Positions 41,101-63,385 are shown, numbered from the stretch's first letter. The stretch is 64,000 nucleotides of DNA from Candidatus Aegiribacteria sp. (GCA_021108005.1 JAIORS010000154.1:7643-71642), one strand, 5' to 3'. Notes: generated from the sequence alone by a model not told the origin. A program made the numbers and translations.

Positions 41101-41272
41101 GCGGGTGTGGAACACCCGCAGTCCATGAACAGGTCACGTATTCTCCGCTGTCCCAGAAACTTACACTGGGAGCGAGAGTTAACAGGTATGCTAAAAGGGC
41201 AATCAGTCCTACTATTAAGGCAATTGACCTGTCAATTCTGATTCTTCTTATTTCTTCAATACTATTAGTCAA
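38197..41272 (-). pseudogene. DUF2723 (TMEM260-like) GT-C membrane protein split by two frameshifts into three ORFs (39929-41272, 39177-39953, 38197-39150)
   Basis: WDSGEY, GVPHPPG, ATETYA in the first part; GDNDTFPLW, NLSLMNTNWY in the second; the third frame stays open upstream across the second ORF's stop; TTG start overlaps the xerC stop. Confidence 0.75.
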
Positions 41273-47585: not shown

Positions 47586-48654
47586 TGACTGCTTCTTCAA
47601 GAAGAGATTCTACCCTGGAAAACAGACGTTCGGCGTTGAAGTGGCATACCGCCCTTTCCAACGCTCCGGAGGAGAGCCTGGAATGCATATGTGGATCCTC
47701 CATCTTCTTCACCGCCTCTGTCATGGCGATGGAATCACCCGGCGGAATAACCAGACCTGATACATTATCAGAATTTACCCAGGGAACTCCGGTTGGAAGA
47801 GCTGTACTTATTACAGGAATACCGCAAGCCATGGCTTCGGTCTGCACCATACCGAATGCTTCGCTTCGCAGTGTTGATGGCAGAATAAGACACCTGGCCT
47901 GCTGATAGAGTTCTACAAGCTTTCGATCGTCCGGGTTACTGACAATCTCTACATTCAGGCTGTTCTCACGGATTATTTTTCGGACATCGCACTCGAGGGG
48001 GCCTCCCCCCACCATAACAAGTTTTCTCCGTGGAAATTTCTTCCAGGCATCGAGCAGTACTCCGATACCCTTGTACTTCCGAAACCTTCCTACAAATAGA
48101 AAATAATCGCTTTTCGGGGAAGCATCGGAAGGTCTGAAGACATCAAGATCTGAACCGATAGGAACAACTTCAGTATTATCAAGGTCTGAGAGATAGAGGG
48201 AAGTATCAAGATAAACAGGAGAAGTAGCTATTACCTTGCTCGCGCCTTTGAGAAACCTTTTAAGAAGCGGGCCGTAGAAAGGAAGGAATAATGCCTGTCT
48301 GACTATATCGCTATGGTATGTTACGATGTAAGGTGTGTTTCTTCGGGCAAGGAGCCATGCAATTACAGCAGATGGAAGTGGAACATGGAAGTGCAGTATA
48401 TCGGCAGGAGTGTTTTGTAATATCCTTCGAAGTCCGGGGGATATAGGATTTGAAAGGATTCTGCATATACAGGGGTATTCAATGACATTGAATCCTGACA
48501 CCTCCTTTTCAGAACATCCCCTGGCATTGCCTGCCACAAGAACACTGACTTCATGCCCTCTGCCGACGAGATACCTGGAAAGGTCGTGCAGATACCTTTC
48601 AATTCCACCCCTCACGAATGGATGGATATCCTTGTAAACCTGAAGGATATTCAC
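47569..48654 (-). CDS. GT4 glycosyltransferase
   Basis: RGGIERY, FVGRFRKYKG, EAFGMVQTEAMACG. Confidence 0.92.
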   Translation of the reverse strand: MNILQVYKDIHPFVRGGIERYLHDLSRYLVGRGHEVSVLVAGNARGCSEKEVSGFNVIEYPCICRILSNPISPGLRRILQNTPADILHFHVPLPSAVIAWLLARRNTPYIVTYHSDIVRQALFLPFYGPLLKRFLKGASKVIATSPVYLDTSLYLSDLDNTEVVPIGSDLDVFRPSDASPKSDYFLFVGRFRKYKGIGVLLDAWKKFPRRKLVMVGGGPLECDVRKIIRENSLNVEIVSNPDDRKLVELYQQARCLILPSTLRSEAFGMVQTEAMACGIPVISTALPTGVPWVNSDNVSGLVIPPGDSIAMTEAVKKMEDPHMHSRLSSGALERAVCHFNAERLFSRVESLLEEAVNAEIN

Positions 48655-49739
48655 GTTCCAAACTCCTCATACACTGTCAAAACCTGTCTTGCCATTCGTT
48701 CCGTTGAGAAATCTGAAGCAAAATTCATCAATGTGTCAGCGTCATGATCGGTATCAAGAGAACCAAGGATGGATTCAGAAATGGAATCGGGATCAAAGCC
48801 TCCCGCGACGGTCGATATCTCCGAGTAGATCTCCCTGAGTGCGGAAGCGGGAGTAACAACAGATGGAACTCCCGCTGAAGCTGCTTCAAGCGGTGGCAGT
48901 CCAAAACCTTCGTACAAAGATGGGTAAACAAGCAGTTCAGCGCCTGAAATGCAGCTTTTCAACATACTTTCCGGGAGGGATCCAGTAAGAAGAACACCTT
49001 CCGTAGTGAGAAGCTTTTTCCTGAGGGATTCCGGTCCCCAGCCCCACCTCCCAGCGATAACAAGAAGCATATCAGGATGAATCCTTCTCACATTCGCCCA
49101 GGAATCAACAAGAGCTGAAATATTTTTTCTTGGTTCTATTGTCCCGGCAAACGCTATATATCTTCCCCGGACGGAGAATACGCTCCTGAATTCGGAAGGA
49201 TCAGCCAGAAAGGAATCTGTAGACAGGTAAACCTTTCTGATTCTACTCGCTTTTATACCCAGAAGCTCCTCCGCTTCACTTCCCGTTGACTCGCTGTCAA
49301 CCATAACCACATCAGCTTTTCCAGCGACTTCCCTGAAATGAAGGCGGTAATAGACTGATTTCAAGAATGGAAACCATGACGGATTCCTGCAGAATGCCAG
49401 GTCATGAAGGGTAACCGCGCAGGGAACATCATGAGGCGCTCTGCCGGAAAAGGCGGGAAGATGTACTATGGAAGGTGAAATTGTTGCGACTGCTGAAGGC
49501 AGTGTAATATTCTCGTAAAATACCTTCCTGATACCACCCGCAGAATGCTGATAGCAAAGAGCTTCCGAAGGAGAGATCAGCTTCCCGCCGACAGCGGCAA
49601 CAACGTTGGCTTTGGAACGAATGAATCCTTCAAGAAGTCTTTTAAGGTAAATACCTGTTCCGCCCCTGTTGGAGAGTGAATCAGCGTAAATAACTGCCGG
49701 TGCGGAGCGGTTCGAATATTCAGTACATTTATATTTCAA
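48651..49739 (-). CDS. GT4 glycosyltransferase
   Basis: TLHDL, GTIEPRKN, YPSLYEGFGLPPLEA; start uncertain (TTG). Confidence 0.9.
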   Translation of the reverse strand: MKYKCTEYSNRSAPAVIYADSLSNRGGTGIYLKRLLEGFIRSKANVVAAVGGKLISPSEALCYQHSAGGIRKVFYENITLPSAVATISPSIVHLPAFSGRAPHDVPCAVTLHDLAFCRNPSWFPFLKSVYYRLHFREVAGKADVVMVDSESTGSEAEELLGIKASRIRKVYLSTDSFLADPSEFRSVFSVRGRYIAFAGTIEPRKNISALVDSWANVRRIHPDMLLVIAGRWGWGPESLRKKLLTTEGVLLTGSLPESMLKSCISGAELLVYPSLYEGFGLPPLEAASAGVPSVVTPASALREIYSEISTVAGGFDPDSISESILGSLDTDHDADTLMNFASDFSTERMARQVLTVYEEFGT

Positions 49740-50709
49740 TTTTGCACGAGCTGCCGGCGTTGATCCTCACAGCACTGCCCGATATGTCCGCTTCGTTACC
49801 GATTATTGAATCGTGGAGATTCACATTGATGAGTTTTGTTCCACAACCTACAATTGTATTACGGATGATGGAATCTCTAACTTCCGAACCGGATGCAATG
49901 GAGACGTAAGGTCCAACAACAGAGGATTCGATTGTTACATCATCATCAATGCTTACGGGCGGAATTATCACGGTGTTTCTCAATTCTCCTTCCGATGAAC
50001 CCTTTTTCAGATCAAGGAGAATCCTGTTGGTTTCAAGAATGGTTTCCGGTTTACCGCAATCGTACCATCCATCAACCTCAAAACATCCAAATGGGTGCCC
50101 CTCCTCAAGCATAAGCTGCATGGCGTCAGTCAGCTGGAATTCCCCGCTGGTCTTTTTTCCGCTTTCTATCAGACGGGACGTGGCATCCATAAGTTCATAA
50201 CCTGAAATGAATCCGTAAATACCGACTATAGCCAGGTCGCTGATGAATTCCTGAGGTTTCTCCACAAGTTCCTTAACTCCGTTGTTATCTTGCACGACAA
50301 CACCGAATCTTCGTGGGTCCTTTACTCTCTTAACCGCTATCATGTTCGATTCACTATTGAGGGCCAGAGACAGGTCAGCGCTGAAAAGAGTATCTCCGAG
50401 AACCACAAGTGTCTGTCCGTCATTGGTCATTGGTGACGCAAGATTCACGGCTGCCGCGAGTCCATCCATCGTCTTCTGCATTGCGAAATCAACTTGAATT
50501 TCCGGATAGTTCTTCCTGGCCCAATCCACGATTTCATCTCCGAGGTATCCAACTACAAGTGTGATGTGATCTATTCCTGAAGCTGTAAGTTCATCTATGA
50601 TATGTCCCAGCATGGTTTTTCCAGCAAGGCGAATGAGAACTTTGGGCAACGACCATGTGAGGGGCCTCATTCTTGTGCCTTTTCCTGCCACCGGGATTAT
50701 GGCATGCAT
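49729..50709 (-). CDS. Sugar-1-phosphate nucleotidyltransferase (long RmlA-like)
   Basis: PVAGKGTRMRPLT...PK, GDTLF, EKP, EFQLTDA, WYDCG, left-handed beta-helix tail. Confidence 0.9.
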   Translation of the reverse strand: MHAIIPVAGKGTRMRPLTWSLPKVLIRLAGKTMLGHIIDELTASGIDHITLVVGYLGDEIVDWARKNYPEIQVDFAMQKTMDGLAAAVNLASPMTNDGQTLVVLGDTLFSADLSLALNSESNMIAVKRVKDPRRFGVVVQDNNGVKELVEKPQEFISDLAIVGIYGFISGYELMDATSRLIESGKKTSGEFQLTDAMQLMLEEGHPFGCFEVDGWYDCGKPETILETNRILLDLKKGSSEGELRNTVIIPPVSIDDDVTIESSVVGPYVSIASGSEVRDSIIRNTIVGCGTKLINVNLHDSIIGNEADISGSAVRINAGSSCKIEI

Positions 50710-52488
50710 TCATTCACCTCCATCGTTTCTTTCCCGATGTATCTCGTCCAGTATGATCTCGGGATATCTGGATTTAACGTAATCAAAAACGAGATCTCTT
50801 ATTTCATCTCCTGATTTCAAGGTCAAAGCTTTTTTTGCGATAGGCTCAACTTCACTCATGCGGATAACGCTTATCATTTCCTTGACGTCAGGGATGAGTG
50901 TAATAGGTACACTGAGTTCGTTCAGGCCGAATCCTACCAGAAGAGGAACTGATAACGGATCGTTGGCCATCTGTCCGCATAGGCCAACCCATTGTTTCAC
51001 TTCCCTGCATTTTCTGGCGACGATATCGATCTGCCTGACAACTGCGGGATGCAGTGAATCAAACAGCTTGGATACGTATGGGCTGCCTCTGTCAACCGCA
51101 AGAGTGTACTGAGTAAGATCGTTTGAGCCAATTGATACGAAATCGGTATGGGGAAGCAGAAGATCAATGCCAAGAACGGCTGCGGGAGTTTCAATCATGA
51201 TACCAAGCGGTGGAATGTCTCCTCTTGGAGTGCCTTCACGATCAAGTTCTCCGGCAATATCCGCAAGCATGGTTCTGACCTGAAGAATCTGATCGTATCC
51301 GGTAATCATCGGAAGCATTATCCTTCCGTTTCCGTACCTTGCCGCTCTAAGCAATGCTCTCAGCTGTCTGATGAATTTTTCCGGACGGTCAAGGCAGATT
51401 CTTATAGCCCTCCACCCTAGAAATGGATTTTTTTCCGTTGAGGGAATTGAATCCAGGAACTTGTCGCCCCCGAGATCCAGTGTCCTTATTATCACAGGAT
51501 CAGGATTAAGAGTCTCGAGTACATGCCTGTAGGCTCTATAGTGGAAATCTTCATCGTCTTCCATCTCCGGTGTGAGAAGCCTTATGAATTCCGTTCTGAA
51601 AAGACCTATGCCATACCCTCCGAAACGGCGAACCTGATCGGCTTCCTGGGAGAATTCAATATTCGCCGAAAGTTCCACTTCTCTGCCATCTTCGGTTGCG
51701 GCAGGGCTTTCGGCGTTCATCGCTATCTCCGCCTCGGCTATGTTGTACCGATTTTTTATTCTGGAATAGTACTCAAGTTCATCGTCGTTGGGATCCAGTA
51801 TTACATTGCCATGGATTCCATCGATAATTACAGTCTGTCCTGGAACCACATATTCCGCTACATCCTTAAGGGCAACAACGGCCGGAATCCCCATACTCCT
51901 GGCAAGTATCGCGGTATGTGAAGTTGAACCGCCAAGATCGGTAACTATTCCAAGAAGCTGTCTTCTTGACAGTCCCGCAGTTTGTGAAGGGTCGAGATCC
52001 CGCGATACAAGAACTACAGGATCAGTCAGATTTGACAGGGCTTCCTGCTCGGTACCCAGCAGATTTGCCATTATCCTTTTGCCTACGTCCCTTATATCGA
52101 CAGATCTGCTTTGAATGTACGGATCCTTTATCAGGTTGAAACGTTCAAGAACCTCATAGAGAGCCATGCTTAAGGCATACTCGGCACTCACCTGTTCGTT
52201 CCGTATCCGCTTTTCAACCTCTGAGATCATGGCCGGATCGTTCAGAAGTAGGATATGAACTTCGATGAGCTGTTTACCCTCAATAATATCGCTGACCTGA
52301 TCCGATATCTGCTCAAGTTCCACCCTCGTATGAGCAAGAGCTGCTTTGAATCGATCGAGTTCCGCTTCTACCTCTGCGTTGTTTTTCAGGCTTCTCTTCT
52401 TTACCCTTATCTCTTCGATGTTCAGCAGAAATGCCGGCCCTATAGATACACCGGGAGACGCAGGAGTACCTGTAAATCTAATGCTCAA
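50710..52488 (-). CDS. ptsI: PTS enzyme I (PEP-protein phosphotransferase)
   Basis: TSHTAILARS (phospho-His), GLFRTEF, RTLDLGGDK, NPFLGWRAIR, MIETP, GSNDLTQY, CGQMA; TTG start. Confidence 0.97.
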   Translation of the reverse strand: MSIRFTGTPASPGVSIGPAFLLNIEEIRVKKRSLKNNAEVEAELDRFKAALAHTRVELEQISDQVSDIIEGKQLIEVHILLLNDPAMISEVEKRIRNEQVSAEYALSMALYEVLERFNLIKDPYIQSRSVDIRDVGKRIMANLLGTEQEALSNLTDPVVLVSRDLDPSQTAGLSRRQLLGIVTDLGGSTSHTAILARSMGIPAVVALKDVAEYVVPGQTVIIDGIHGNVILDPNDDELEYYSRIKNRYNIAEAEIAMNAESPAATEDGREVELSANIEFSQEADQVRRFGGYGIGLFRTEFIRLLTPEMEDDEDFHYRAYRHVLETLNPDPVIIRTLDLGGDKFLDSIPSTEKNPFLGWRAIRICLDRPEKFIRQLRALLRAARYGNGRIMLPMITGYDQILQVRTMLADIAGELDREGTPRGDIPPLGIMIETPAAVLGIDLLLPHTDFVSIGSNDLTQYTLAVDRGSPYVSKLFDSLHPAVVRQIDIVARKCREVKQWVGLCGQMANDPLSVPLLVGFGLNELSVPITLIPDVKEMISVIRMSEVEPIAKKALTLKSGDEIRDLVFDYVKSRYPEIILDEIHRERNDGGE

Positions 52489-52493
52489 CTGTT

Positions 52494-52760
52494 CTATTCC
52501 TCTCCAAATCCGCCACGGATGATATCGACAATTGTTTTAACAGCCTCGTTTTCATCATCGCCTTCAGCTGTAACTTCGATTGTAGTCCCACGGCATGCCG
52601 CAAGCGTCATGACACCCATAATACTTTTTGCGTTAACCGTATCGCCATCAGCGGTCAGTGTGATATCGCAGTAAAATATTGAGGCAGCTTTAACTATCTT
52701 TGCAGCTGGCCGTGCATGGATCCCCAGTTTGTTTACTACTTCAGCATTTTCAGTTTTCAA
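52494..52760 (-). CDS. ptsH: Phosphocarrier protein HPr
   Basis: GIHARPAA (His15), NAKSIMGV (Ser46); TTG start. Confidence 0.97.
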   Translation of the reverse strand: MKTENAEVVNKLGIHARPAAKIVKAASIFYCDITLTADGDTVNAKSIMGVMTLAACRGTTIEVTAEGDDENEAVKTIVDIIRGGFGEE

Positions 52761-52776
52761 TAAAGTCCCCCAGCTT

Positions 52777-53748
52777 TTACTTTTTTCCCGATCTCAGCTC
52801 TTTTCTGATTATTCTATTGATCAGGTCTTTTTCAATCTCCTCAGGAACGTTTCTTCCCTTCTGAAGAAGAAGATAATTCATTACCGCGACTTCAAGAAGA
52901 AGTGTAAGGTTACGGCCAGGCAAGACAGGTATAATCGTTATGGGAATAGGCAGATCAAGTATAGTGCTGATCTTTTGAATAAGGCCTGTTCTATCGAAAT
53001 CCTGATTGTGCCTTGACCATTCCTCCAGTTTCACTTCAAGGTTTATCTGCTGTCTGTCCTTTACCGATCTTATTCCGTAGAATGCTGAGACATCCACAAG
53101 TCCAAGACCTCTGATCTCCATATGATGCGCCATTCTGGAATCTCCAATACCGAAGAGCGCATTTCCAATTCTTCTTACATGTACTCTGTCATCAGCGATC
53201 AGCCTGTGTCCTCTTTCAAGAAGACCCAGTACGGTCTCGCTTTTGCCTATTGCGCTTCTTCCCGTACATAATACTCCTGCGCCGAAAACTTCTACGAGGC
53301 TTCCATACACATCGGTTTTAGGTGCGAATACCATATCAAGGAAACCGCAGAGTTTTCGTATCAGCGGCGTCGTGTCCATACTGGAACGAAAAAGAGCTGA
53401 GGAACTTGATTTGGAAAAACGGACAAGTTCATCGGGAGGGTCGAGACCCTTAGTTACAATAGAACAGTAGACAGGCAATTCAAAAAGCAGTTCCAGCGAA
53501 GCCTCTCTGCGCTTGGAAGAAAGTGAATCGATGTAAGATATCTCCGTTTCACCGAAGATCTGCACCCTTTTGTGCAGGAAATTATGAAGGTATCCGGTCA
53601 GCGCCATTCCCGGCCGGCTGATATCCTGGGATTGTACAAGTCTATCATGCCCGGTATCTTCGTTAATTGTCTCCAGTTCAAGACTTTTACTTAGTAATCT
53701 GAAAAGCTCACCTGTCGTAAGCTCTTCCCTGCCGGGAATGTATTCCAT
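52777..53748 (-). CDS. hprK: HPr kinase/phosphorylase
   Basis: GRSAIGKSE Walker A, GHRLIADD, HMEIRGLG, PGRNL. Confidence 0.96.
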   Translation of the reverse strand: MEYIPGREELTTGELFRLLSKSLELETINEDTGHDRLVQSQDISRPGMALTGYLHNFLHKRVQIFGETEISYIDSLSSKRREASLELLFELPVYCSIVTKGLDPPDELVRFSKSSSSALFRSSMDTTPLIRKLCGFLDMVFAPKTDVYGSLVEVFGAGVLCTGRSAIGKSETVLGLLERGHRLIADDRVHVRRIGNALFGIGDSRMAHHMEIRGLGLVDVSAFYGIRSVKDRQQINLEVKLEEWSRHNQDFDRTGLIQKISTILDLPIPITIIPVLPGRNLTLLLEVAVMNYLLLQKGRNVPEEIEKDLINRIIRKELRSGKK

Positions 53749-53762
53749 CGGGATAATCTCCG

Positions 53763-54311
53763 TTATTTCTGGTCTCTCACCAGTTCAACAACCTGTGTCT
53801 TGCCGTCCGGGGTTGTATATACAACACTGAGCATGCCGGTTTCCGTGTTCTGGAAAACAAAATGCTCGTCCTGCTTAATTTCGTAATTCATAATGGCGTC
53901 TTTAGTGTTCTGCCTCGGCATTATTTCCGAATCGTCGATGAGAATTCCATCAGCGAACTCGGATTCCCCCGCGGGAACGTAATAAGTTAAAGAAATGTCG
54001 TCTGAACCGTTACTTTCCCGGTGGGGATGATTGTGCATTCTGTCTTTGAATTTCCGAACCTGTGTTTCAAGCGAGTCGAATGCATCATCAAATGCTGAAT
54101 AGATATCATGGGATTTTGATTTGGAATCCAGTTTTATATGATTTCCTCTAACCTGTATATGAACATGATTGGTTCCGGAGGTTACTTCGAGTATCACATG
54201 CACGTCATCTATTCCATTGTAGAATCTATCTACGGTTTTGAGTTTTTTCTCAACATGTTTTTTCAGAGCATCCGTTAATTGAAAGTGTCTTCCACTGATT
54301 TCAATATTCAT
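53763..54311 (-). CDS. hpf: Ribosome hibernation factor, long-HPF type
   Basis: N-terminal RaiA fold (GRHFQLTDALKKHVEKKL...DIYSAFD) plus C-terminal 'FVFQNTETGMLSVVY' S30AE_C-like domain. Confidence 0.9.
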   Translation of the reverse strand: MNIEISGRHFQLTDALKKHVEKKLKTVDRFYNGIDDVHVILEVTSGTNHVHIQVRGNHIKLDSKSKSHDIYSAFDDAFDSLETQVRKFKDRMHNHPHRESNGSDDISLTYYVPAGESEFADGILIDDSEIMPRQNTKDAIMNYEIKQDEHFVFQNTETGMLSVVYTTPDGKTQVVELVRDQK

Positions 54312-54508
54312 TCAGAACTCCCTTCGGTTAATTGTCTATTTCTCAATGGAAACGGTGAACATGGATAAAAAATACTGTTCCACATATGCGATTGAGCATA
54401 TCCTGAACAGTTAACGCTTACAAGTGTATTTATCACAGAACAATAATATTGTTCCTTTAGTGCGTGGTCAACACCATTAGAAAACCAATCCTTCCGCAGC
54501 TTTCTCTT

Positions 54509-55894
54509 TTATCGATTATTCCTGCCGATGAACTCCTCAACTTCAGGAATACCGCCCTGGAATATCAGATAGCCGTTATGTGGTTCTCTTTCTGTAATCT
54601 CACCCGCTATCGGTGTGAGCATTATCTTTTTAACCTCTTCCCTGTCATGGCTCTGACCAAGTGCCCAGCATAGTTTTACATATGCAACTTCCGGAAGCAT
54701 ATTGGAAGCTGGAATTACACCAAGATCCATGATATCCCGCCCGGTATCGTATACGAACATCTGTACGTATCCCCACAGGGTCTGAACTGTCATGTAAACG
54801 TGTACTCCCTGATCGCAGGCTTTCTTAAGAACAGGATAGAGAGGCTTGTTCACATGTCCAAGTCCCGTTCCCGCGATTATGATGCCATTGTAAGCGTTAT
54901 CAATAAGCGATTCAATTATATCCGGCTTCATATCAGGATAGTAATACACTATAGAAACACTTGAATCGTAATCCGTATTGATCTTCACATTACGGTCGGT
55001 GCGTCTTTTCCTGTAATCGCTCTTCAGGGGGGTTATTTGTCCCTTTTCAACCATAGCCAGAGGAATGTCTCCGATTGTTCGGAATGTGGACCTGTAGGAG
55101 GAATGCATCTTTCTGACCCTTGTTCCTCTGTGCAGAAGTCCATACTGATCACTTGTAGGGCCGAACATACAGACCATAACCTCAGCAATGTCGCTTTCAG
55201 CGGCTGCATAGGTAGCGTTCATCAGATTTAATGCCGCATCGCTTGAAGGGCGGTCACTGGATCGCTGGGATCCGACCATTACTATAGGAACAGGTGTATC
55301 CTGAACCATGAATGAGAGTACAGCAGCTGTATGATGCATCGTATCGGTTCCATGGCCGATGACTATTCCATCTACACCATCGGCTATTGCCCTGCCTATC
55401 GCTTCCGCCGTTCCTTTCCACTGTTCAGGTCCCATGTTCTCACTGAATACTCCGTAGAGTTTTTCTGTTTTTAGGTTGCAGATATCGGCCAGTTCGGGTA
55501 CCGATCCATAAAGCTCACCGGGGGAAAATGCGGGAATGACAGCGCCGGTTCTGTAATCAAGCCTTGAGGCAATGGTACCCCCGGTGCCGAAAAGCCTCAC
55601 ATTCGGTTTTAATGAATCGTAAGGGAATTCCTTTTCAGGTATCTTGTAATGTGCTTCGTTCCTTCCCAGCTCAGTGATGGATTCAATAGTTTCAACATCA
55701 AGGCCGACATTGTATCCGTTATGGATTTTTAACACTATATGCACATCGTCAGCGGTTTCCGACCGGGGAAGAATTACTCCCTTGAACCCCCCCCTGGTTG
55801 ATTCTATACTTACATCGGACCATACGCCGACACTGAATTTTTTCAGACATTCCAGGCTTTTACCCCGGTATCCTTTGTATAGATCGGAAGACAG
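54509..55894 (-). CDS. gatD: Glu-tRNA(Gln) amidotransferase subunit D (archaeal type), inferred CTG start
   Basis: GatD N-terminal domain (GVILPRSETADDVHIVLKIHNGYNVG) and asparaginase-like core TGGTIASR, HGTDTM, GSQRSSDRPSSDA, HRGTRVRKMHS. Confidence 0.93.
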   Translation of the reverse strand: MSSDLYKGYRGKSLECLKKFSVGVWSDVSIESTRGGFKGVILPRSETADDVHIVLKIHNGYNVGLDVETIESITELGRNEAHYKIPEKEFPYDSLKPNVRLFGTGGTIASRLDYRTGAVIPAFSPGELYGSVPELADICNLKTEKLYGVFSENMGPEQWKGTAEAIGRAIADGVDGIVIGHGTDTMHHTAAVLSFMVQDTPVPIVMVGSQRSSDRPSSDAALNLMNATYAAAESDIAEVMVCMFGPTSDQYGLLHRGTRVRKMHSSYRSTFRTIGDIPLAMVEKGQITPLKSDYRKRRTDRNVKINTDYDSSVSIVYYYPDMKPDIIESLIDNAYNGIIIAGTGLGHVNKPLYPVLKKACDQGVHVYMTVQTLWGYVQMFVYDTGRDIMDLGVIPASNMLPEVAYVKLCWALGQSHDREEVKKIMLTPIAGEITEREPHNGYLIFQGGIPEVEEFIGRNNR

Positions 55895-55900
55895 CTTGGA

Positions 55901-57829
55901 TCACCTCCTATGTATCTGCTGGGACGTAGAATCAGTAACCTCGTGAAGGATTACATTTCGCACTGCTTCCAGTACTTCCCTTCCGCCCGGAATCCCGTTA
56001 AATTTGTGCCTCACACCCCCGATGATGAATAGTTCCATCAGATCGGTATCGAACGGATCAAGTCCTTCCATCAGGTTGAGGGCAGCATTTTCCATTTCTT
56101 TTCTGCCTGGTATCGTTAAACCGCTTACCATCGATTCGATTCCCGCGTTTTCGTGTCCGCGGGATTTTTCCAGAATATAGGATGCCGCTTCAACGGGAAG
56201 ATCGCGGTTGCCGGTTGCAGATAGTACTTCTATAAGTGCTTCATCAGTGATATCACCTGAGCTGCCGTTTTTCTTCAGATGGTTCAACGTGCTAAGAAAA
56301 TAATGCATTAGAACGCGTGGAGAGTACGGGCATTTCTCCACAGCTTCATCGTACGCGAATCTCATGTGAGAGATACTCATTTGACGGGCAGATTCTGCAG
56401 GCACCCCTGCGGAAATGTATCTCTCCATCCGTTCCCAGGGTCTTTCGGGAAGATCAGATTCTATGCGTTCAATCATTTTCTCGGTTATTGCTATGGGAGG
56501 CAGGTCGGTATCTGGATACATCCTGTTAGGTCCGGGTAGAATTCTTTCGAATCCGTTTGTTCCGTCGGAATATGATTGTCTGGTTTCACTGCAGACGCCA
56601 TCGATGGCTTCCCTTGCTCTTGTTGCGATTTCACTCGTCGCCATATCGAGGTCTTCGGCAGATCCCCATACAACAACGACAGCATCAGCAGTCTCAGCAC
56701 CGGTTCTCTTTTTTATTGTCTGCCATTCGCCAACAGTGAAACTGTATCCTTCCTCTCCATCGTGTACGATATTGGGGAGGGTATCAAGACATGCAATCAC
56801 ACGGACTCTGTCGGAGATCTCCCCGGCGAAAGTGCAACCTGGCTGTGTAACCGTAGAAAGAAGCCCTTCGTATCCCCGCAGTAAAACAGCTCGAAGCTCA
56901 AATCCCTTCTCAATCGCGTCCGCGACCGGGCTGAAGGCAGTTCCGGAGAGTTCATCCGTGATATCAAAGCATTCCGAACTGAAAGTCGAATCTGTAATGC
57001 CCCTGCTGGAAAGTTCTTTCTTGATCTCCAGAAGAGACACCTGGCGGAATGCCTCAATGTGAACGAGCAGTGGTATCGCTGGAATCCTTGAAACGCCTTT
57101 TATCTCAACACGGCATCCACCCTTTACAGAAACGTTCACATCCTGCCTTGCGGCGCCAATTCCACGTCTTACTTTCCCGGAGGCTCTTACAAGATCGCTG
57201 AGTATCCGGGCAACCTCAGCCACATCGCGTGGAGTAGTCATTTCGGGAGCCGTTACAGTCTCAATAAGCGGTATTCCAAGCCTGTCCGTCAGGTATACGC
57301 GTTCATGGCCTTTATCGCTTACTTCCCGGCAGGCATCTTCTTCCAGTCCAAGCTGAATAATATTGATACGCCTGTCTTTAAATGGGATCCAACCGTCTAC
57401 TCCCAGTATTGTCGTTCTTTGAAATCCCGCGGGTATTGATCCATCGAGGTACTGCTTCCTCTGAATATGTATCTCACTAACGAGTTTGCAGTTAAGAAGC
57501 ATCGTTATTTCAAGCGCGATATCGAGAGCCTGAGGATTCAGTTCGAAGGGCGGGGTATCATCAATTTCGTAAGTACAAATGGTATCTTTGTTTATCCGGT
57601 ATGTAATGTTCTTTTTTGTTTTGAATTCCATAAGAGCTGTGCCGTCGTATTCACCTAGTTCTGAAAGAGTAGGCCTCATATGACGTATTATCTTTGCGTC
57701 GAATTCGTCAGAGTAAGGAAGCACCGGGCAGCGACAGAATAATTTTTTCCTGGTATCTATCTGCTGGTGTATCTCAAGTCCGCTGCGCAGCCCGATAGCT
57801 TCGTAATCGGAGGCTGTCGTCTCCTCCAT
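55901..57829 (-). CDS. gatE: Glu-tRNA(Gln) amidotransferase subunit E (archaeal type)
   Basis: GLEIHQQ, KLFCRCP, RPTLSELGEYD, RKQYLDGSIPAGFQRT, GLEEDACR, DRLGIPLIE, RRGIGAARQDVNVS, AspRS-like insertion, RILPGPNRMYPDTDLP. Confidence 0.95.
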   Translation of the reverse strand: MEETTASDYEAIGLRSGLEIHQQIDTRKKLFCRCPVLPYSDEFDAKIIRHMRPTLSELGEYDGTALMEFKTKKNITYRINKDTICTYEIDDTPPFELNPQALDIALEITMLLNCKLVSEIHIQRKQYLDGSIPAGFQRTTILGVDGWIPFKDRRINIIQLGLEEDACREVSDKGHERVYLTDRLGIPLIETVTAPEMTTPRDVAEVARILSDLVRASGKVRRGIGAARQDVNVSVKGGCRVEIKGVSRIPAIPLLVHIEAFRQVSLLEIKKELSSRGITDSTFSSECFDITDELSGTAFSPVADAIEKGFELRAVLLRGYEGLLSTVTQPGCTFAGEISDRVRVIACLDTLPNIVHDGEEGYSFTVGEWQTIKKRTGAETADAVVVVWGSAEDLDMATSEIATRAREAIDGVCSETRQSYSDGTNGFERILPGPNRMYPDTDLPPIAITEKMIERIESDLPERPWERMERYISAGVPAESARQMSISHMRFAYDEAVEKCPYSPRVLMHYFLSTLNHLKKNGSSGDITDEALIEVLSATGNRDLPVEAASYILEKSRGHENAGIESMVSGLTIPGRKEMENAALNLMEGLDPFDTDLMELFIIGGVRHKFNGIPGGREVLEAVRNVILHEVTDSTSQQIHRR

Positions 57830-57967
57830 TCTTTTTATCACCTTTAGATAATTCTCCTTTCTCTTCGCATGTTCATACTCATTTCAGATAATTCATTGAG
57901 TATGAAGTGAGATCAGATTCCGCAAGAACAGAACTTGATTATATTTCATGGTATTCCACAAAACAAC

Positions 57968-57993
57968 GCCCGGCACCTTTAAAGGCACCTTTA
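57968..57993. repeat. Second occurrence of the GCCCGGCACCT motif with a tandem GGCACCTTTAAA duplication
   Basis: GCCCGGCACCTTTAAAGGCACCTTTA directly after the stop of the response regulator gene; 11-bp identity with the ends of the 4354-4537 element. Confidence 0.6.
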
Positions 57994-59262
57994 AATATCA
58001 AGGTCCTTCAGTCTTGAAAGCAGTGTCCTGTAGCTGATCCTTAAAATCTCAGCGGCCTTCTTCCTGTTGCCATTGGTATCTCTGAGAGCTTTTCTTATCA
58101 TCTCCCCTTCTCGAAGTTTCGCCGCCCTGGCCGATTCCTCCAGAAGTCCTTCCTCATTGACCGCTTCATCGATCTCCAGTATTTCAGTATCTATGATTTT
58201 ATCATCAACGAGCGCTGCAGCTCTTAGTACGATACTTCTGAGCTGTCTTATGTTTCCCGGCCAACTGTACGCCTTCAGTTTGTTCATCGCATCCTCAGTA
58301 ACGGTTACTTCCCGGTAACCGGATTGTCTGAGAAAGTACTTTGTAAGATCAGCTATATCCTCCGACCTGTCCCGAAGAGGTGAAAGGGTAACAGGAAACT
58401 CCCCTATTCTGAAAAAGAGATCTTTTCTGAATCTTCCTTCTTCTGTTTCCAGTTTGAGTTCTCTGTTACTAGCTGAGATAACCCTTGCGTTGGTATGGAA
58501 TACTTCCGTCCCTCCGACTCTTGTGTATTCCCTTTCCTGAAGTACTCTTAGAAGTTTTCCCTGCAGTGATGTATCAAGATCTCCAACCTCATCGAGAAAG
58601 ATGGTTCCTCCCTGAGCATACTCGAATCTGCCCTTGCGTGTTCTGTCCGCACCGGTGTAGGCACCTTTTTCAGCGCCGAAAAGTTCACTCTCAAGAAGGT
58701 CGGGGGGTATAGCGGCGCAGTTGACAGGTATAAAAGGCCCATCGGAACATACACTGTCCAGATGGATCATTCTTGCTAGAAGTTCCTTTCCTGTACCGCT
58801 CTCTCCCAGTACAAGGATGTTCAAATCGGTTCCGGCACCCTTGGATGCCCTCTTTATTGTGGAAAGAAGGGATGGCGAGGAACCTATTATATCGGTACCT
58901 GCCGAATGCGAATACCTTCTCAAAAGCGCGAGAAGTTCATCCAGATCGAAGGGTTTTGTTATAAAATCCCTTGCGCCTTCTTTCATTGCCTCAACCGCAA
59001 GATTCACCGTGCCGAAAGCCGTCATCAGAATAACAGGTGTCCAGTGGTTCAATTCCCTTGATTTTTTAAGAATATCCATCCCGTTGATGTTCCCTGGAAG
59101 ACATATATCACTCAGCAGAATATCAAAAGCGCCGGTCTCGAGCATCCTGACAGCATCGGTTCCGGAAGAAACCGCAGTCACTTCCCATCCATCTTCCGAA
59201 AGGGCTGTTGTAAGCATGTTTCGCATGGCTCGTTTGTCCTCGATAAGAAGAATCCTTTCGAT
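57991..59262 (-). CDS. Sigma54-dependent response regulator (REC-AAA+-Fis HTH), inferred ATC start
   Basis: (M)ERILLIED, LLSD, GESGTGKE, VNCAAIP, ESELFGAEKGAYTGA, FLDEVG, WPGNIRQL, C-terminal HTH. Confidence 0.93.
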   Translation of the reverse strand: MERILLIEDKRAMRNMLTTALSEDGWEVTAVSSGTDAVRMLETGAFDILLSDICLPGNINGMDILKKSRELNHWTPVILMTAFGTVNLAVEAMKEGARDFITKPFDLDELLALLRRYSHSAGTDIIGSSPSLLSTIKRASKGAGTDLNILVLGESGTGKELLARMIHLDSVCSDGPFIPVNCAAIPPDLLESELFGAEKGAYTGADRTRKGRFEYAQGGTIFLDEVGDLDTSLQGKLLRVLQEREYTRVGGTEVFHTNARVISASNRELKLETEEGRFRKDLFFRIGEFPVTLSPLRDRSEDIADLTKYFLRQSGYREVTVTEDAMNKLKAYSWPGNIRQLRSIVLRAAALVDDKIIDTEILEIDEAVNEEGLLEESARAAKLREGEMIRKALRDTNGNRKKAAEILRISYRTLLSRLKDLDI

Positions 59263-59263
59263 G

Positions 59264-60949
59264 TCAATAACCTCCCTGGTTTTCCTGAATAGGAATCAGA
59301 ATGGTGAACAAAGCTCCGCTCTCGTCTCTGTTCTCACCGCTCAGTTCGCCTCCCATAGACCTGATTATTCTCCTGCTGACGGAAAGACCCAGCCCCATAT
59401 TGCCACTGCTTCTGTTCTTTGTTGTCCTGAAAGGCCTGAATGCTTCATCACTGTCAATGGATAAACCGGGGCCGGAATCTGCAACCGATATTAAAAGATT
59501 TGTGCCTTTCCTGTTTATTGAGATACGCACTGAAGACGATGAATCAGCCTCAACGGCGTTTCTTACGATATTGTAAATACAGGATGAAAGGAGTTTCCTG
59601 TCAGCGTTTATGAAAAACTCGTCAATAGAAGTACTTACCGAACATCTATCTTCGTTCAGCCTGCAGGCTTCTTCGCATATTGAAACCACATCATCCCTCC
59701 CAAGATTAGCTTTAACCGGCTCCGGTGATCTGGCGAAACTCCCGAAGGAAATGATAAGACCCTGAGCCGATTCGACCTCCCTTTTTACTTCGGAGATGAT
59801 ATTCTGTGTTCTTTCATCGGAATGCCCCCTGGTCAGTAAATCAACGTAACCTGATAGTGCACATAGCGTATTTCCCATTTCATGCGATATACCAGCAGAT
59901 GCAGCTCCTATATCTGCCATTGCCGTCTGATCGGCTATTTTCCTCTCCAGTTCACTGATTCTGGTGACATCGGTAACAAGTACCGCAATCTCGTTCACCC
60001 CCGAGCGTGAAATAACTACACTGTACATTCTATCCTGTTTAACAACGTCGTCTCTTATCTGAAATTCCGAGGAGGTATTTCCCGATTTATCCTGTGAAAG
60101 AAGAATGGGTTTGAGCTTGCGTCCAGCTTCAGTTTTCTCCCATGGGAACTCTTTATCGATATCGCCATCGCTGAGTTCGAACATCTCCTTCGACTGTCTG
60201 TTAAATAGTGAAAGATTTCCGTTTCCGTCAATTGAGAATACTGCTGATCCGAGTACAGACAGCATGGCAGCAGATCGTTTTTCCACTCTATCGGCTCTTT
60301 TCTCAGCCCTCTTTCTTAGATCGTTCAATTGTTGATCCCGATCGTGAAGCAATTCTACAAGACGATGAAAGGATGCACCGGCAGCTTCCGGATCTATTCC
60401 GCCGCCGCTGCTGAAACGATCGGCTTCAAACAGTATCTCTCTCAAAGGAGAAATAACAGTCCTGGCAAGATATCTCGGAGTAAAGAAAGCCAGAACCGCG
60501 AGAGCGGCTGTAAGAGCAGCAAGGCCGATAATGAGTGACCTGTATATAGCTGAAATAGACGATCGACATGGCCTGACTCCAACAATGTGATCAGTTTCAG
60601 CACACCCTGCGAAATACCAGCCCTTAGTCTCTCCTGGTACGGGTATATCTTCAGATGATATCCCGGATCCGGCTATCATGTTCCCCGAATAATCAAGCAT
60701 CACTGCAGCTTCAAGGCTTCCGCTCCGTACGAGTGGGGCTGTGATAGTATCGAATTGATTTGAAGTATCTGATGCTTCAATCGTTCTGCTTATTGCATAC
60801 GCGGTTATCGTGGCCATATGCCCTGATTCAGCTTCAATGTCTTTGTCTACAAGAAATACTATTAAAAAGGAAACCACAGTAGCGGCCGCGGCTGCTCCTA
60901 TTGCCAGCCCTGTCAGAAGCTCAACACCTATTATGAATCTTTTTCGCAA
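59264..60949 (-). CDS. Membrane sensor histidine kinase (TM-periplasmic-TM-PAS-HisKA-HATPase)
   Basis: SHEMGN H-box, NIVRNA, DSGPG, GLGLS; TTG start with AAGGAG. Confidence 0.92.
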   Translation of the reverse strand: MRKRFIIGVELLTGLAIGAAAAATVVSFLIVFLVDKDIEAESGHMATITAYAISRTIEASDTSNQFDTITAPLVRSGSLEAAVMLDYSGNMIAGSGISSEDIPVPGETKGWYFAGCAETDHIVGVRPCRSSISAIYRSLIIGLAALTAALAVLAFFTPRYLARTVISPLREILFEADRFSSGGGIDPEAAGASFHRLVELLHDRDQQLNDLRKRAEKRADRVEKRSAAMLSVLGSAVFSIDGNGNLSLFNRQSKEMFELSDGDIDKEFPWEKTEAGRKLKPILLSQDKSGNTSSEFQIRDDVVKQDRMYSVVISRSGVNEIAVLVTDVTRISELERKIADQTAMADIGAASAGISHEMGNTLCALSGYVDLLTRGHSDERTQNIISEVKREVESAQGLIISFGSFARSPEPVKANLGRDDVVSICEEACRLNEDRCSVSTSIDEFFINADRKLLSSCIYNIVRNAVEADSSSSVRISINRKGTNLLISVADSGPGLSIDSDEAFRPFRTTKNRSSGNMGLGLSVSRRIIRSMGGELSGENRDESGALFTILIPIQENQGGY

Positions 60950-61016
60950 AGGATCTCCTTAGTACTGCCAGTCATAAAAACCATTGCCTGCCCTCAATCG
61001 TACTGGATAATCTTTA

Positions 61017-62261
61017 TTATATACTGTTTTTCGTAGCAGCGCATTGTGACAGCCGTCTGTAAAACCTGTCTGTAACTCTATCCCAGGTCCATTTTTCAAG
61101 TACGCTCTTCCTGCCCTTCTCACCCATTGTAAAACCGAGTTCCGGATTATCAAGCAGTATATCGATTCTATCTGAAAGAGTGGCAGTATCACCCCATGAA
61201 ACTAGGAATCCGTTAATGCCATCACTAATTATGTCCGGCATTGCTCCTGACCAGCATCCTATAACCGGTTTCCCTGTCATCCATGCTTCCAGCAATACGA
61301 TTCCAAAACAATCAAGTCTTGATGGAAGAAGTACTATGTCCGCTGCGGAGATGAGATCAATTCTCCCCTTCATACTTATATAATCAGTTAAGATAAGCCT
61401 GCTTCCGAACTCCTCAGCAAGATTCTCCCGCGAATCGATGTATTCCTCCGAATCGGGAAGAACCGGCCCCGCAAGAACAAGTGTAAAATTCCATCCTTTT
61501 TTCAGTAGATTCCCGCATGCTTCAATTATCTGTGCGGTTCCTCTATCTAGTGAGTGAGCGGTAAGGCTCAGGATTACAGGTCCTGAAACACCAAGCCTCT
61601 TCAGACCTCTTTCCCGGTTGCTCTCACTAAATTCCCCCGGATCGATTCCGCTGCCTGATACGTGAACCCTTTCATCCGGAACGCCCATCCCGGTGTAAAG
61701 CTCCCTCTCAAAATTACTCTGGGCAACGACAAAGCTGCTGTTGTTAATGACCTTCTTCAAGCATCCGTCGAAATAGTGCATTGGCTTTATTCTTCTGTAT
61801 TTCTCGCCAACACTCGCATGGGGTACTGAAACGAGTCCTGTTTGATTTCTCCGACTGTAGCGCCAACCTTCGTAAAGCATGAACGGCATCGCGTTGGCAT
61901 GCACAAAATCGAATTCCCTATCAACCGAAAGCCAGCGGTGCAATGATGGAATGAATGGATTGGGATAGTAGTATCTGTCAGTCCCGCATCCGGTCAGCCG
62001 CCTCAACGTTCCACGGAGGATATTCTGAAAAGGAGGATGTATAACGGGAAAGCGTTTAATCCTGACACCGTTGTACAGGTCATCTCTTCTTAGAATACTG
62101 GATCCCGCTCTGGAAACGAACCATGACATGTCCCATGCGTCAGTAGTGTAAATAGCGGATTTGTGTCCCCACCTTTCCCCTGCAAGGGCATGTTCGAGAA
62201 CGTACCGCTCAGCACCTCCATGAAAAGGCCAGGATCTGTGAACAAGGTGGAGAATCTTCAT
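61017..62261 (-). CDS. GT4 glycosyltransferase
   Basis: GGAERYV, GSGID, LPSRLDCFGIVLLEAW, GINGFLV. Confidence 0.9.
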   Translation of the reverse strand: MKILHLVHRSWPFHGGAERYVLEHALAGERWGHKSAIYTTDAWDMSWFVSRAGSSILRRDDLYNGVRIKRFPVIHPPFQNILRGTLRRLTGCGTDRYYYPNPFIPSLHRWLSVDREFDFVHANAMPFMLYEGWRYSRRNQTGLVSVPHASVGEKYRRIKPMHYFDGCLKKVINNSSFVVAQSNFERELYTGMGVPDERVHVSGSGIDPGEFSESNRERGLKRLGVSGPVILSLTAHSLDRGTAQIIEACGNLLKKGWNFTLVLAGPVLPDSEEYIDSRENLAEEFGSRLILTDYISMKGRIDLISAADIVLLPSRLDCFGIVLLEAWMTGKPVIGCWSGAMPDIISDGINGFLVSWGDTATLSDRIDILLDNPELGFTMGEKGRKSVLEKWTWDRVTDRFYRRLSQCAATKNSI

Positions 62262-63385
62262 TGTACCGATATCCTTCTATAAAACTCGCATATGCCCCTT
62301 GCTATATCCTGCCAGTTCTTCCTTCTGGCTGAAGAGGACATTCTACGGAGTTCTTCCACTCTGGCAGGCTCCTCAAGCATTGTTATTTCCCTTATCCAGC
62401 CTTCATGATCGTTGGGTTCGAGGAGAATTCCGTTATTTCCCACGGTATCCGGAAGAGCGGTAGCGTTGCTTGAAATAACCGGCGTGCCGCAGCCTAATGC
62501 TTCAAGTACAGGTAACCCGAGTCCCTCGAACCTGCTGGGGCAAAGCAGTGCCCTTGCTCCACGATACAATTCCACTATAGCAGTGTCCGAAACGTTCTTC
62601 ATCATTCGAACACCCGGCCCCTGTTTAACTTCCACATCTCCCCATCCTCCGGCTCCAACCAGAATGAGGGGTATTTCAACACCCTTTTCCCTGGATTTTC
62701 CGTATACATCAAGGAGAAAGGGAATGTTTTTTCGTGGAACGAAGCTGCTCACATGAAGTAAATAGTTTCCCTGCTGTAGATTAAGTTCATTCAGTATCTC
62801 TTTTGAAGACGGCCCCGGAGAGAATTTCTCATCCGCGGCGCCTCCGGCGCAGAAAATCCTATCCTGCGGTAACCCGAAATAATCCCTTACTCTCTGTCCT
62901 GTCCAGTTTGATATTGCCATAACTGAAGAGCCAGCCTTTATCAGCCGGGCTTCCTTTTTAGCGAAGTCAACGGTTTCCTCAGTATGCCATTGGGGATTTT
63001 CGAGCGCGGAAAGATCATACATTGTTATAACAGATTTGCAACCGTGAGGATATTCGGGCTGAACACCACTGTGGTGATATACGGCGTTTTCGCCTGAATA
63101 TGTGTACAATCTTGAACTCCTGGATCTCTCTTCCCATTTTTCACGGATGGGAATCCTCCGTAAGAAGGGTATTCTCAGGTAGAAAGGAGTTTTCAGTATC
63201 TGGCAATCAACCTCTGGCCCGGGGACCCCCGGATGCGCTGCGGGAACATCAATCGGAATAAAATCGATCTCAAACTCGGATGCGACTTCTGAAATGGCCT
63301 TTACTACGGAAAGAAGGTATCTTGACACACCACCCAGCGCATGTGGAACAACACTGAGATCAAAATACACGCGGAGCTCGCCTAT
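62258..63385 (-). CDS. GT4 glycosyltransferase (inferred ATA start; GTG at 63370 is the alternative)
   Basis: GGVSRY, TMYDL, PRKN, PSRFEGLGLPVLEA. Confidence 0.88.
   Translation of the reverse strand: MGELRVYFDLSVVPHALGGVSRYLLSVVKAISEVASEFEIDFIPIDVPAAHPGVPGPEVDCQILKTPFYLRIPFLRRIPIREKWEERSRSSRLYTYSGENAVYHHSGVQPEYPHGCKSVITMYDLSALENPQWHTEETVDFAKKEARLIKAGSSVMAISNWTGQRVRDYFGLPQDRIFCAGGAADEKFSPGPSSKEILNELNLQQGNYLLHVSSFVPRKNIPFLLDVYGKSREKGVEIPLILVGAGGWGDVEVKQGPGVRMMKNVSDTAIVELYRGARALLCPSRFEGLGLPVLEALGCGTPVISSNATALPDTVGNNGILLEPNDHEGWIREITMLEEPARVEELRRMSSSARRKNWQDIARGICEFYRRISVQ

Follow-up and report, generated by a model that had tools for sequence, protein, structure and literature searches.

The DNA analysed here is a window of 64,000 nucleotides from Candidatus Aegiribacteria sp. 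(GCA_021108005.1, JAIORS010000154.1:7643-71642), and our subject is a pair of genes on its minus strand, gatE and gatD, which encode the two subunits of a GatDE-family amidotransferase. In the window translations, positions 54509-57841 hold two adjacent and co-directional open reading frames (ORFs), gatE lying upstream of gatD, and the presence of such a motif-bearing pair is far beyond chance. Both proteins are full length, with all catalytic residues intact, and are encoded in a bacterial chromosome; the host belongs to Candidatus Aegiribacteria/Fermentibacteria, of the FCB group, and comes from marine sediment and cold seep. The locus is a bacterial member of a known enzyme family. The features are collected in Table 1.

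Table 1. Position of gatE, gatD and neighbouring features in the window.
Feature	Position	Strand	Description
gatE	55901-57841	minus	646 aa from GTG 57841; kinase/amidotransferase subunit
gatD	54509-55894	minus	461 aa; glutaminase subunit
gatD domains	GatD_N, residues 26-73; asparaginase-type core, residues 99-425; clade-specific C-terminal tail, residues ~441-461		Pfam GatD_N, Asparaginase, Asparaginase_C
Coupling junction	55892-55909	minus	AGGAGG (55909-55904), gatE stop TGA (55903-55901), spacer TCCAAG, CTG (55894-55892)
First 50 gatD codons	55745-55894	minus	looks intergenic but is coding; most of Pfam GatD_N
Sigma54-dependent response regulator	57991-59226	minus	NCBIfam NtrC/AtoC-type; upstream of gatE
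Sensor histidine kinase	59264-60949	minus	NCBIfam AtoS-type; upstream, co-directional
hpf	53763-54311	minus	HPF NCBIfam equivalog passed; downstream of gatD
hprK	52777-53748	minus	HprK NCBIfam equivalog passed
ptsH	52494-52760	minus	HPr NCBIfam equivalog passed
ptsI	50710-52488	minus	PtsI NCBIfam equivalog passed
Sigma70-like promoter match	54471-54443	minus	gatD-hpf spacer; sole intergenic match near gatED

GatE scored above both NCBIfam equivalog cut-offs for this subunit (NF003107, 522.6 bits as compared to 456; TIGR00134, 457.4 as compared to 319.55) and below the cut-off of every GatB model (best score 148.5 bits as compared to 338). By phmmer, its residues 8-629 align with residues 5-625 of the Pyrococcus abyssi protein (1zq1_C, E 3e-104), and the match to M. 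thermautotrophicus GatE (2d6f_C) has an E of 7e-97. The AlphaFold2 model, built on a multiple sequence alignment of 58 homologues, has a pLDDT of 76.6 and a pTM of 0.76. When this model was used in a fold search, 1zq1_C came out on top (TM 0.75), followed by 2d6f (TM ~0.7; 0.69-0.75 over the two archaeal structures), by GatB chains and then, via the insertion, by AspRS. Residues ~100-277 of GatE can be aligned with the cradle domain of GatB. The AspRS-like insertion (residues ~285-400; pLDDT ~76-94) aligns with the insertion of P. abyssi GatE and drew AspRS chains in the fold search with an E of ~2e-3. As to the start of the gene, the position kept among homologues is ATG 57829, which gives a protein of 642 aa (the consensus of 58 homologues begins at M5 of the window protein) and which, judging from this comparison, is more likely to be the gatE start than GTG 57841. 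GatB of the bacterial GatCAB is a paralogue of GatE, the two systems share a glutaminase-fed, tRNA-dependent kinase/amidotransferase chemistry, and GatB chains match the GatE model with TM values of 0.57-0.71 (normalised to the target chain). However, the GatE insertion is absent from GatB, GatD is of the asparaginase type and not an amidase such as GatA, and there is no GatC.

GatD also passed both of its equivalog cut-offs (TIGR02153, 511.6 bits as compared to 324; NF003217, 511 as compared to 310, the 461-aa protein covering profile positions 8-416 of 420), and it aligns over essentially its full length with 1zq1_A and 2d6f_A (E ~1e-114). The core of the protein (residues 97-434) matches the subfamily model of AnsA, the type I L-asparaginase, and the catalytic Thr/Thr-Asp/Lys are common to both; the score on that model is 395 bits, as compared to 511 on the GatD equivalogs. 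Moreover, AnsA is a stand-alone protein of ~330 aa, whereas GatD has 461 aa, a GatD_N domain and a gatE partner, and, as the outgroup, E. coli AnsA lies apart from every GatD sequence. These results bear out an earlier note on this DNA, made from the sequence alone, in which GatE had been taken as a true orthologue and not a GatB, and GatD as something other than an ordinary asparaginase; all the GatE and GatD motifs quoted there are present in the translations.

The two archaeal enzymes of known structure, from M. thermautotrophicus (2D6F, with tRNA(Gln)) and P. abyssi (1ZQ1), share with the window proteins both subunits, the domain order and all catalytic residues, that is, the N-domain and asparaginase fold of GatD and the cradle, AspRS-like insertion and helical C-terminal region of GatE, with full-length alignments at E values of 1e-104 to 1e-114 and a GatE fold match within the TM range given above. 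Residues T101, T177, D178 and K254 of GatD and H15, E157 and E184 of GatE of M. thermautotrophicus, reported as catalytic by Oshikane et al. 2006, coincide with the motifs expected in the 2d6f sequences. In the window, GatD T107, T183, D184 and K262 align with the four GatD positions, and GatE E23, H25, E167, E168 and E194 align with E13, H15, E157, E158 and E184, respectively. None of the catalytic residues varies among 73 bacterial GatE, 65 bacterial GatD and the two archaeal enzymes, and the whole cradle domain of GatE is conserved in the bacterial clade. The window enzyme differs from the archaeal ones in the host, which is bacterial, and in sequence, GatE being 37-38% and GatD 48-49% identical to them, as compared to 55-59% between the two archaeal enzymes. 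Unlike the archaeal proteins, bacterial GatD has an extra conserved C-terminal tail of ~21 aa, and the bacterial genes are nearly always adjacent, gatE first and gatD second, and translationally coupled, with a CTG start of gatD in the window.

This CTG start is easily overlooked. When only ATG, GTG and TTG were allowed as starts, the ORF call gave a GatD of 411 aa from GTG 55744 and an apparent gap of 156 bp after gatE. The true gatD encodes 461 aa from the CTG listed in Table 1. The database protein P0121 has 461 aa and is identical to the window translation, and most homologues have 456-465 aa. A direct reading of the DNA revealed no ATG, GTG or TTG between the gatE stop and the conserved SSDLYKGYRG; the Shine-Dalgarno sequence AGGAGG abuts the gatE stop, and the CTG, placed 6 nt past the stop, precedes the conserved segment. 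Codon differences in the first 50 codons of gatD, in the ratio of synonymous to nonsynonymous, were 10:4 with respect to the Aegiribacteria locus L001, 25:13 with respect to L002 (unclassified bacterium) and 26:10 with respect to L008 (Krumholzibacteriota), and the Pfam GatD_N domain scores 48.3 bits over positions 5-51 of 54 in the 461-aa form as compared to 26.6 bits over positions 31-51 in the 411-aa ORF. Because gatD starts at CTG, ab initio callers have truncated GatD to 395-411 aa in other collections, where the positions recorded at this locus are those of the 411-aa call; an exact-sequence lookup of the 461-aa protein gave no match. The junction is therefore an annotation trap, in which ab initio callers lose at least 50 GatD residues.

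The same three loci (L001, L002 and L008) have an identical layout of Shine-Dalgarno sequence, stop, 6 nt and CTG. A related Shine-Dalgarno sequence followed by CTG is found in L004, L005 and L009, a TTG start in L003, and ATG in Ignavibacteria and most others. In the CTG-start group the two genes are read in one frame, and it is the CTG (or TTG) start together with the shared frame that marks the Fermentibacteria/Krumholzibacteriota subgroup within a set of GatD and GatE from bacterial metagenome-assembled genomes (MAGs; Ignavibacteria, Krumholzibacteriota, Aegiribacteria and others) to which the window proteins belong by operon order, lengths and motifs. On the basis of this arrangement, gatD would be made by termination-reinitiation, i.e., translational coupling, at the CTG. 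Read-through of the TGA to give a GatE-GatD fusion protein is a less likely alternative, but not an absurd one, given that a natural GatE-GatD fusion is known from another locus.

The opposite end of GatD carries the conserved C-terminal tail, EREPHNGYLIFQGGIPEVEEFI in the window (DNA 54512-54574), with the motif xEPxNGYLIxQGxxPE in every bacterial-context GatD. A weaker form of the motif was found solely in the Sigynarchaeota-related group, and the other archaeal GatD in the sample lack it. The tail might be a contact with the partner subunit or with the tRNA.

The distribution of the pair was analysed by scanning one genome per GTDB species with peptide patterns from the window GatE, which gave 369 relatives. 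The best 80 of the 369 are all labelled bacterial and include Aegiribacteria, Krumholzibacteriota, many Ignavibacteria/Melioribacteraceae, Kapabacteria, Chlorobiota, Neomarinimicrobiota, Cloacimonetes, Calditrichia, Rhodothermaceae, other Bacteroidota and two Planctomycetota MAGs; the automatic labels Hyphomicrobiales, Ectothiorhodospiraceae, Chromatiales and Clostridiales, also met among the relatives, are not to be trusted. With a bacterial host and these bacterial relatives, the distribution of GatDE is not archaea-only. Several gatE-gatD pairs lie on closed or chromosome-scale bacterial records of 2.4-6.9 Mb, and entries named Candidatus Aegiribacteria and Fermentibacteria are among the GatD cluster mates of the window proteins at 90% identity. 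In almost every locus with enough sequence gatD is directly downstream of gatE; the sole exception of its kind is L068 (Planctomycetota MAG134), in which gatE has no gatD within 10 kb downstream. In most loci the genes are separated by -11 to ~25 nt, GatE has 628-653 aa and GatD 456-462 aa. GatD is much more conserved than GatE (73-95% as compared to 49-86% identity across phyla), and the bacterial gatE-gatD pair is under strong purifying selection. In some Ignavibacteria an insert of 300-870 bp separates the two genes (L021, L048 and L080; shorter in L012, L015, L020, L022 and L038), and in L021 (11912-12745) it is an ORF of 277 aa that by eye resembles a phage antirepressor/Bro-N protein. 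The operon evidently tolerates being split.

GatD was also searched against 1.84 billion cluster representatives, which yielded four more divergent copies (59%, 59%, 52% and 36% identity). Bacterial contexts were recognised for three of them, next to a tmRNA and a Glyco_transf_9 (heptosyltransferase-family) gene, to a protein with a type IX secretion system (T9SS) C-terminal sorting domain, and to a Ser/Thr kinase with TPR repeats, respectively; for the 52% copy (P0264) the short contig does not allow a context call. Each of the four has gatE, or an incomplete ORF that probably represents it, upstream of gatD, and in the 36% copy (L086) two unrelated genes come in between. The 52% and 36% lineages have asnA (aspartate-ammonia ligase) 3' of gatD (L083 2699-3829, L084 2618-3748 and L086 11524-12657), and its position beside gatD in these two most divergent lineages suggests that asparagine is made separately.

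Continuity of the assembly across 54.3-58.0 kb, which the earlier note wanted checked, was confirmed. The stretch 53600-58300 is spanned without a joint by single contigs (27 kb and 14.6 kb), at a uniform depth of ~20x, and at least three runs gave the identical order histidine kinase-response regulator-gatE-gatD-hpf-hprK-ptsH-ptsI in independent assemblies (L089-L091). The hpf-gatD-gatE side was crossed also by a cold-seep run of another study. The closest genome, a MAG of Candidatus Aegiribacteria (L001), has 86% identity in GatE, 95% in GatD and common flanks bar one insertion, and the upstream arrangement of histidine kinase and response regulator is syntenic in L001 and L089-L091. The insertion in L001 (5126-8167) measures 3.1 kb and separates gatE from the response regulator, two genes that are 149 bp apart in the window (57842-57990); of its three ORFs, two look by eye like secreted, repeat-rich proteins, one of them with a probable T9SS-type C-terminal domain. 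The GC content, the GC content at third codon positions and the codon usage of gatE and gatD are typical of the window, and a compositional island was accordingly rejected. Since contigs span both junctions and the composition is native, the gene pair is neither chimeric nor recent.

A neighbour-joining tree of 187 GatD sequences was rooted on E. coli AnsA; at this divergence, neighbour joining is a rough tool. The core bacterial GatD formed a clade with 98% bootstrap, and the core together with the divergent bacterial-context copies one with 99%. The remainder of the tree includes Sigynarchaeota, Nitrososphaerota, Bathyarchaeia, Thermococcus and Methanosarcina, as well as one unlabelled representative in a plainly archaeal context. 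As for GatE, the split between all bacterial-context copies and three archaeal sequences (Pyrococcus, Methanothermobacter and Sigynarchaeota) was recovered in 100% of 200 bootstraps. Raw identities favour no archaeal group: for GatD they are 46% with the Asgard (Sigynarchaeota) protein and 48-49% with Thermococcales and Methanobacteriales, within a range of 44-49% over the archaea compared, and for GatE 39% with the Asgard protein and 37-38% with P. abyssi and M. thermautotrophicus. The claim of the earlier note that this lineage had acquired an archaeal translation module did not survive in that form, as there is no anomaly in composition and the pair occurs in many, mostly FCB, phyla, in one separate clade. 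For the same reasons, namely the native composition, the sharing of the pair by many phyla and its single clade, any transfer must be ancient and not specific to Aegiribacteria. From these comparisons, the most likely history would be one ancient acquisition by a bacterium from an archaeon, followed by mainly vertical inheritance in the FCB group and occasional spread to other bacteria; the direction and the age of the transfer are what we infer.

The surroundings of the pair are bacterial, and the flanks described in the earlier note, hpf-hprK-ptsH-ptsI and a sigma54 two-component pair, were recognised by NCBIfam (Table 1). Elsewhere the window encodes PolA (DNA polymerase I), a bacterial-type TopA, HslU, a Kdo transferase and NadB, and LpxK (Pfam) is on the same contig. 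Extension of the contig through the edge proteins by ~10 kb on each side added MutS, an ECF sigma factor, UvrC, MurJ and SurE. The pair lies in an unbroken co-directional run of ~16 kb on the minus strand (47569-63370), which comprises glycosyltransferases, the histidine kinase and response regulator, gatED, hpf-hprK-ptsH-ptsI, a nucleotidyltransferase and further glycosyltransferases. No sigma70-like match was found upstream of gatE, where sigma54 promoters were not scanned for, nor any terminator-like site within 53600-58300 of the coding strand. Three further minus-strand ORFs of the window, of 735, 447 and 508 aa (33475-35682, 39929-41272 and 44420-45946), gave no NCBIfam match at E <1e-5.

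A census of the neighbourhoods showed that gatE and gatD alone are conserved across phyla, glnA, ettA and other genes representing synteny at the level of lineages. The type I glutamine synthetase gene glnA is directly upstream of gatE in L002-L008 and L019 (e.g., L002 8611-9966), from Krumholzibacteriota and a Rhodothermaceae MAG, and in this glnA-gatE-gatD array the synthase of the amide donor adjoins the amidotransferase. The gene for the translational throttle EttA (ABC-F) is found a few kb downstream of gatD in L012, L014, L017-L029 and others (e.g., L012 15502-17187), and beyond the listed Ignavibacteria too, in L022, L032, L042, L045, L064 and L069. Upstream of gatE in a Melioribacteraceae locus (L046 8886-9010), ARAGORN called a tRNA-Gln (79 nt, anticodon at 39), which turned out to be a GC-rich palindromic repeat and was rejected; it resembles Rfam whalefall-1 below the threshold (28.4 bits as compared to 37).

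Our reading of the locus, to which we would assign a probability of about 0.7, is that of a functional gatE-gatD operon for a heterodimeric, tRNA-dependent amidotransferase of the GatDE family, native to its host and belonging to an old bacterial clade that likely derives from a single ancient archaeal transfer. The conserved catalytic residues and cradle, the strong selection and the tight coupling point to a working enzyme, and the neighbours glnA, ettA and hpf would fit a role linked to glutamine and translation. By analogy with the archaeal enzymes, bacterial GatDE is most likely a Glu-tRNA(Gln) amidotransferase, although its activity and tRNA substrate are what we infer from sequence. In archaeal GatDE, ammonia is freed from an amide donor by GatD, and GatE first phosphorylates and then amidates the Glu on tRNA(Gln) (PMC2330236). 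If the homologous bacterial proteins work in the same way, GatD, with its asparaginase fold and Thr-Thr-Asp-Lys site, would hydrolyse glutamine or asparagine, and the ammonia would reach GatE via an internal channel. GatE would use ATP to phosphorylate the side-chain carboxyl of Glu on tRNA(Gln) and would then amidate it to give Gln-tRNA(Gln). The substrate Glu-tRNA(Gln) would have to be supplied by a glutamyl-tRNA synthetase (GluRS) of the non-discriminating type, and the two subunits would be made by translational coupling, from the ribosome binding site that abuts the gatE stop and the CTG that follows. Co-occurrence, adjacency, coupling and the natural fusion lend indirect support to the predicted GatD-GatE complex with an ammonia channel.

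Several observations weigh against this reading. The C-terminal helical and tail region of GatE binds the tRNA D-loop in archaea; within the bacterial clade, residues 481-646 show 11-22% identity to the window sequence and 0 invariant positions. Neither the Pfam GatB_Yqey nor the GAD signature was detected in the window GatE, in contrast to the archaeal enzymes; in relatives both are strong in Asgard GatE and marginal in Ignavibacteria, and the tail is more eroded in the Fermentibacteria/Krumholzibacteriota subgroup than in Ignavibacteria. Residues 454-645 are nevertheless predicted to be helical (pLDDT mostly 80-90), with a weak phmmer alignment to P. abyssi GatE up to residue 629 and YqeY matches at E ~1 in the fold search. 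The natural GatE-GatD fusion (L082 9301-12132; P0263, 943 aa, on a Logan contig) joins the cradle part (window GatE 13-465) to a full GatD by a linker of ~10 aa and is without the helical/tail region; it is known from a single contig, where a deletion or an assembly error is possible. No tRNA(Gln), GluRS, GlnRS or GatCAB gene is present in the window, in the extended contig or in related loci totalling 1.5 Mb: ARAGORN gave no credible tRNA(Gln) in the window and 94 loci, the extended contig (~10 kb on each side) has no aminoacyl-tRNA synthetase or tRNA genes, and tblastn of E. coli GlnRS, AsnRS and GluRS and of the GatE core against 1.53 Mb of flanks gave only an AsnRS/AspRS-like gene (archaeal L087) and the divergent gatE of L086. 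The locus was found in no RNA-seq run, and the hosts named in a search with an Ignavibacteria GatE were all MAGs, with no cultured strain among them. As for the archaeal origin, the nominal sister of the bacterial GatD is a small group that includes the Sigynarchaeota protein, at 38% bootstrap, and, as the backbone of the tree is unsupported, the direction of transfer is not demonstrated. Two independent characters agree with such a sister, namely the C-terminal tail motif, similar in the Sigynarchaeota protein (xEPPNxFxxGQG), and the adjacent gatE-gatD order in the Sigynarchaeota contig (L098). Its GatD (P0266) is also the best-scoring named archaeal one (442 bits), whereas its GatE, quite distant from that of the window, keeps GatB_Yqey (68 bits) and GAD.

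Since the GatE tail is poorly conserved and a tail-less fusion exists, tRNA recognition may differ from the archaeal one, and sequence comparison suggests that the recognition of both the D-loop and the 1-72 pair may have changed. In the host, tRNA(Gln) presumably has the U1-A72 pair of bacteria. It is then conceivable, but to be taken as a tentative proposal with the odds against it, that an FCB-rich bacterial radiation would make Gln-tRNA(Gln) by GatDE and not by GatCAB or GlnRS, with GatE re-tuned, via its fast-evolving or dispensable tail, from A1-U72 to the bacterial type of tRNA.

The same features of the tail could be explained by a substrate that has shifted or broadened, so that bacterial GatDE amidates Asp-tRNA(Asn), alone or with Glu-tRNA(Gln), in place of a dual-specificity GatCAB. 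Bacterial tRNA(Gln) and tRNA(Asn) share U1-A72, the pair used by bacterial GatCAB (PMC2330236), and a D-loop-reading tail that evolves fast, is unrecognisable to Pfam in the window protein and is missing altogether from the fusion would be expected in this case. However, both subunits pass their equivalog hidden Markov models and the catalytic pocket is conserved, and gatD adjoins asnA, an ammonia-dependent asparagine synthetase, in the divergent lineages, whereas gatE adjoins glnA elsewhere, an arrangement that fits the synthesis of free asparagine and a glutamine-linked role of GatDE. A shift of substrate appears improbable to us.

Just as improbable is a history without any transfer, in which GatDE was passed down vertically since a very early ancestor and has disappeared from most phyla of bacteria. 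A last universal common ancestor with both GatCAB and GatDE is an idea of Sheppard and Soll, summarised in PMC9499178, and it is consistent with a bacterial clade that is monophyletic, internally deep and long-branched, and that stands at the same distance from Asgard, TACK, Thermococcales and Methanobacteriales (44-49% for GatD and 37-39% for GatE). On the other hand, the labelled relatives are mostly of the FCB group with a few Planctomycetota MAGs, which would need very many independent losses; moreover, with AnsA as root the clade nests among archaea, and the tail motif and gene order are shared with Sigynarchaeota (weakly, given the bootstrap mentioned above).

Less probable still is the recruitment of the pair to a job outside translation, such as that of an asparaginase/glutaminase linked to the ATP-dependent amidation of a small molecule, or a regulatory one connected with nitrogen status, with Gln-tRNA made by GlnRS or GatCAB. 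The tRNA-binding tail is the poorly conserved part of the less conserved subunit, and the neighbours include genes related to nitrogen and stress (the sigma54 regulator, hpf, hprK/ptsH/ptsI and glnA). Yet all the kinase/transamidase residues of GatE and the whole cradle are conserved, the AspRS-like insertion and the helical C-terminal region are still predicted, and no member has lost a subunit, bar the Planctomycetota locus described above. Moreover, the GatDE family is not known to have undergone a recruitment of this kind. Finally, a mis-joining of an archaeal fragment to bacterial DNA in assembly or binning, as might be suspected in a MAG for genes used as an archaeal marker, is effectively refuted by the independent assemblies with identical gene order and flanks, the syntenic closest MAG, the depth across both junctions and the crossing of one side by a run of another study, the native composition and the same pair on closed bacterial chromosomes.

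Reviews of 2021-2022 describe GatDE as archaea-only, and one of them as "an archaeal signature protein" (PMC8762117, PMC9499178, PMC8007984). The statement of the earlier note that GatDE is archaea-specific thus holds for the literature (PMC8762117, PMC9499178) and fails for the databases, in which the names GatD and GatE have already been given to these bacterial proteins by NCBI PGAP and IMG. A literature search that did not cover subscription journals found no paper linking GatDE with Ignavibacteria, Fermentibacteria, Krumholzibacteria, Cloacimonetes, Marinimicrobia or the other bacterial phyla named here, and a prior description of bacterial GatDE may exist in those journals; an amidotransferase goes unmentioned in the genome papers of Ignavibacterium album and Melioribacter roseus. 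With the gene pair present in numerous other genomes of bacteria, it looks outdated to label GatDE an "archaeal signature".

The window locus is an ordinary member of the bacterial GatDE clade, and its interest comes mainly from this clade and from the question of co-evolution. A conserved and evidently selected bacterial clade means that the claimed archaea-only distribution is wrong, and domain assignment and contamination checks based on markers can mis-score bacterial genomes that bear GatDE. The supposed confinement to archaea underlies two arguments, the co-evolution of GatDE with an A1-U72 tRNA(Gln) and this co-evolution as the reason for which archaea never acquired GlnRS (PMC9499178, PMC8762117), and the first of these becomes directly testable in these bacteria. 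If bacterial GatDE has indeed been re-tuned to a bacterial-type tRNA, the clade would be a natural experiment in the re-wiring of tRNA identity across domains, and it would bear on whether GatDE predates the split between archaea and bacteria.

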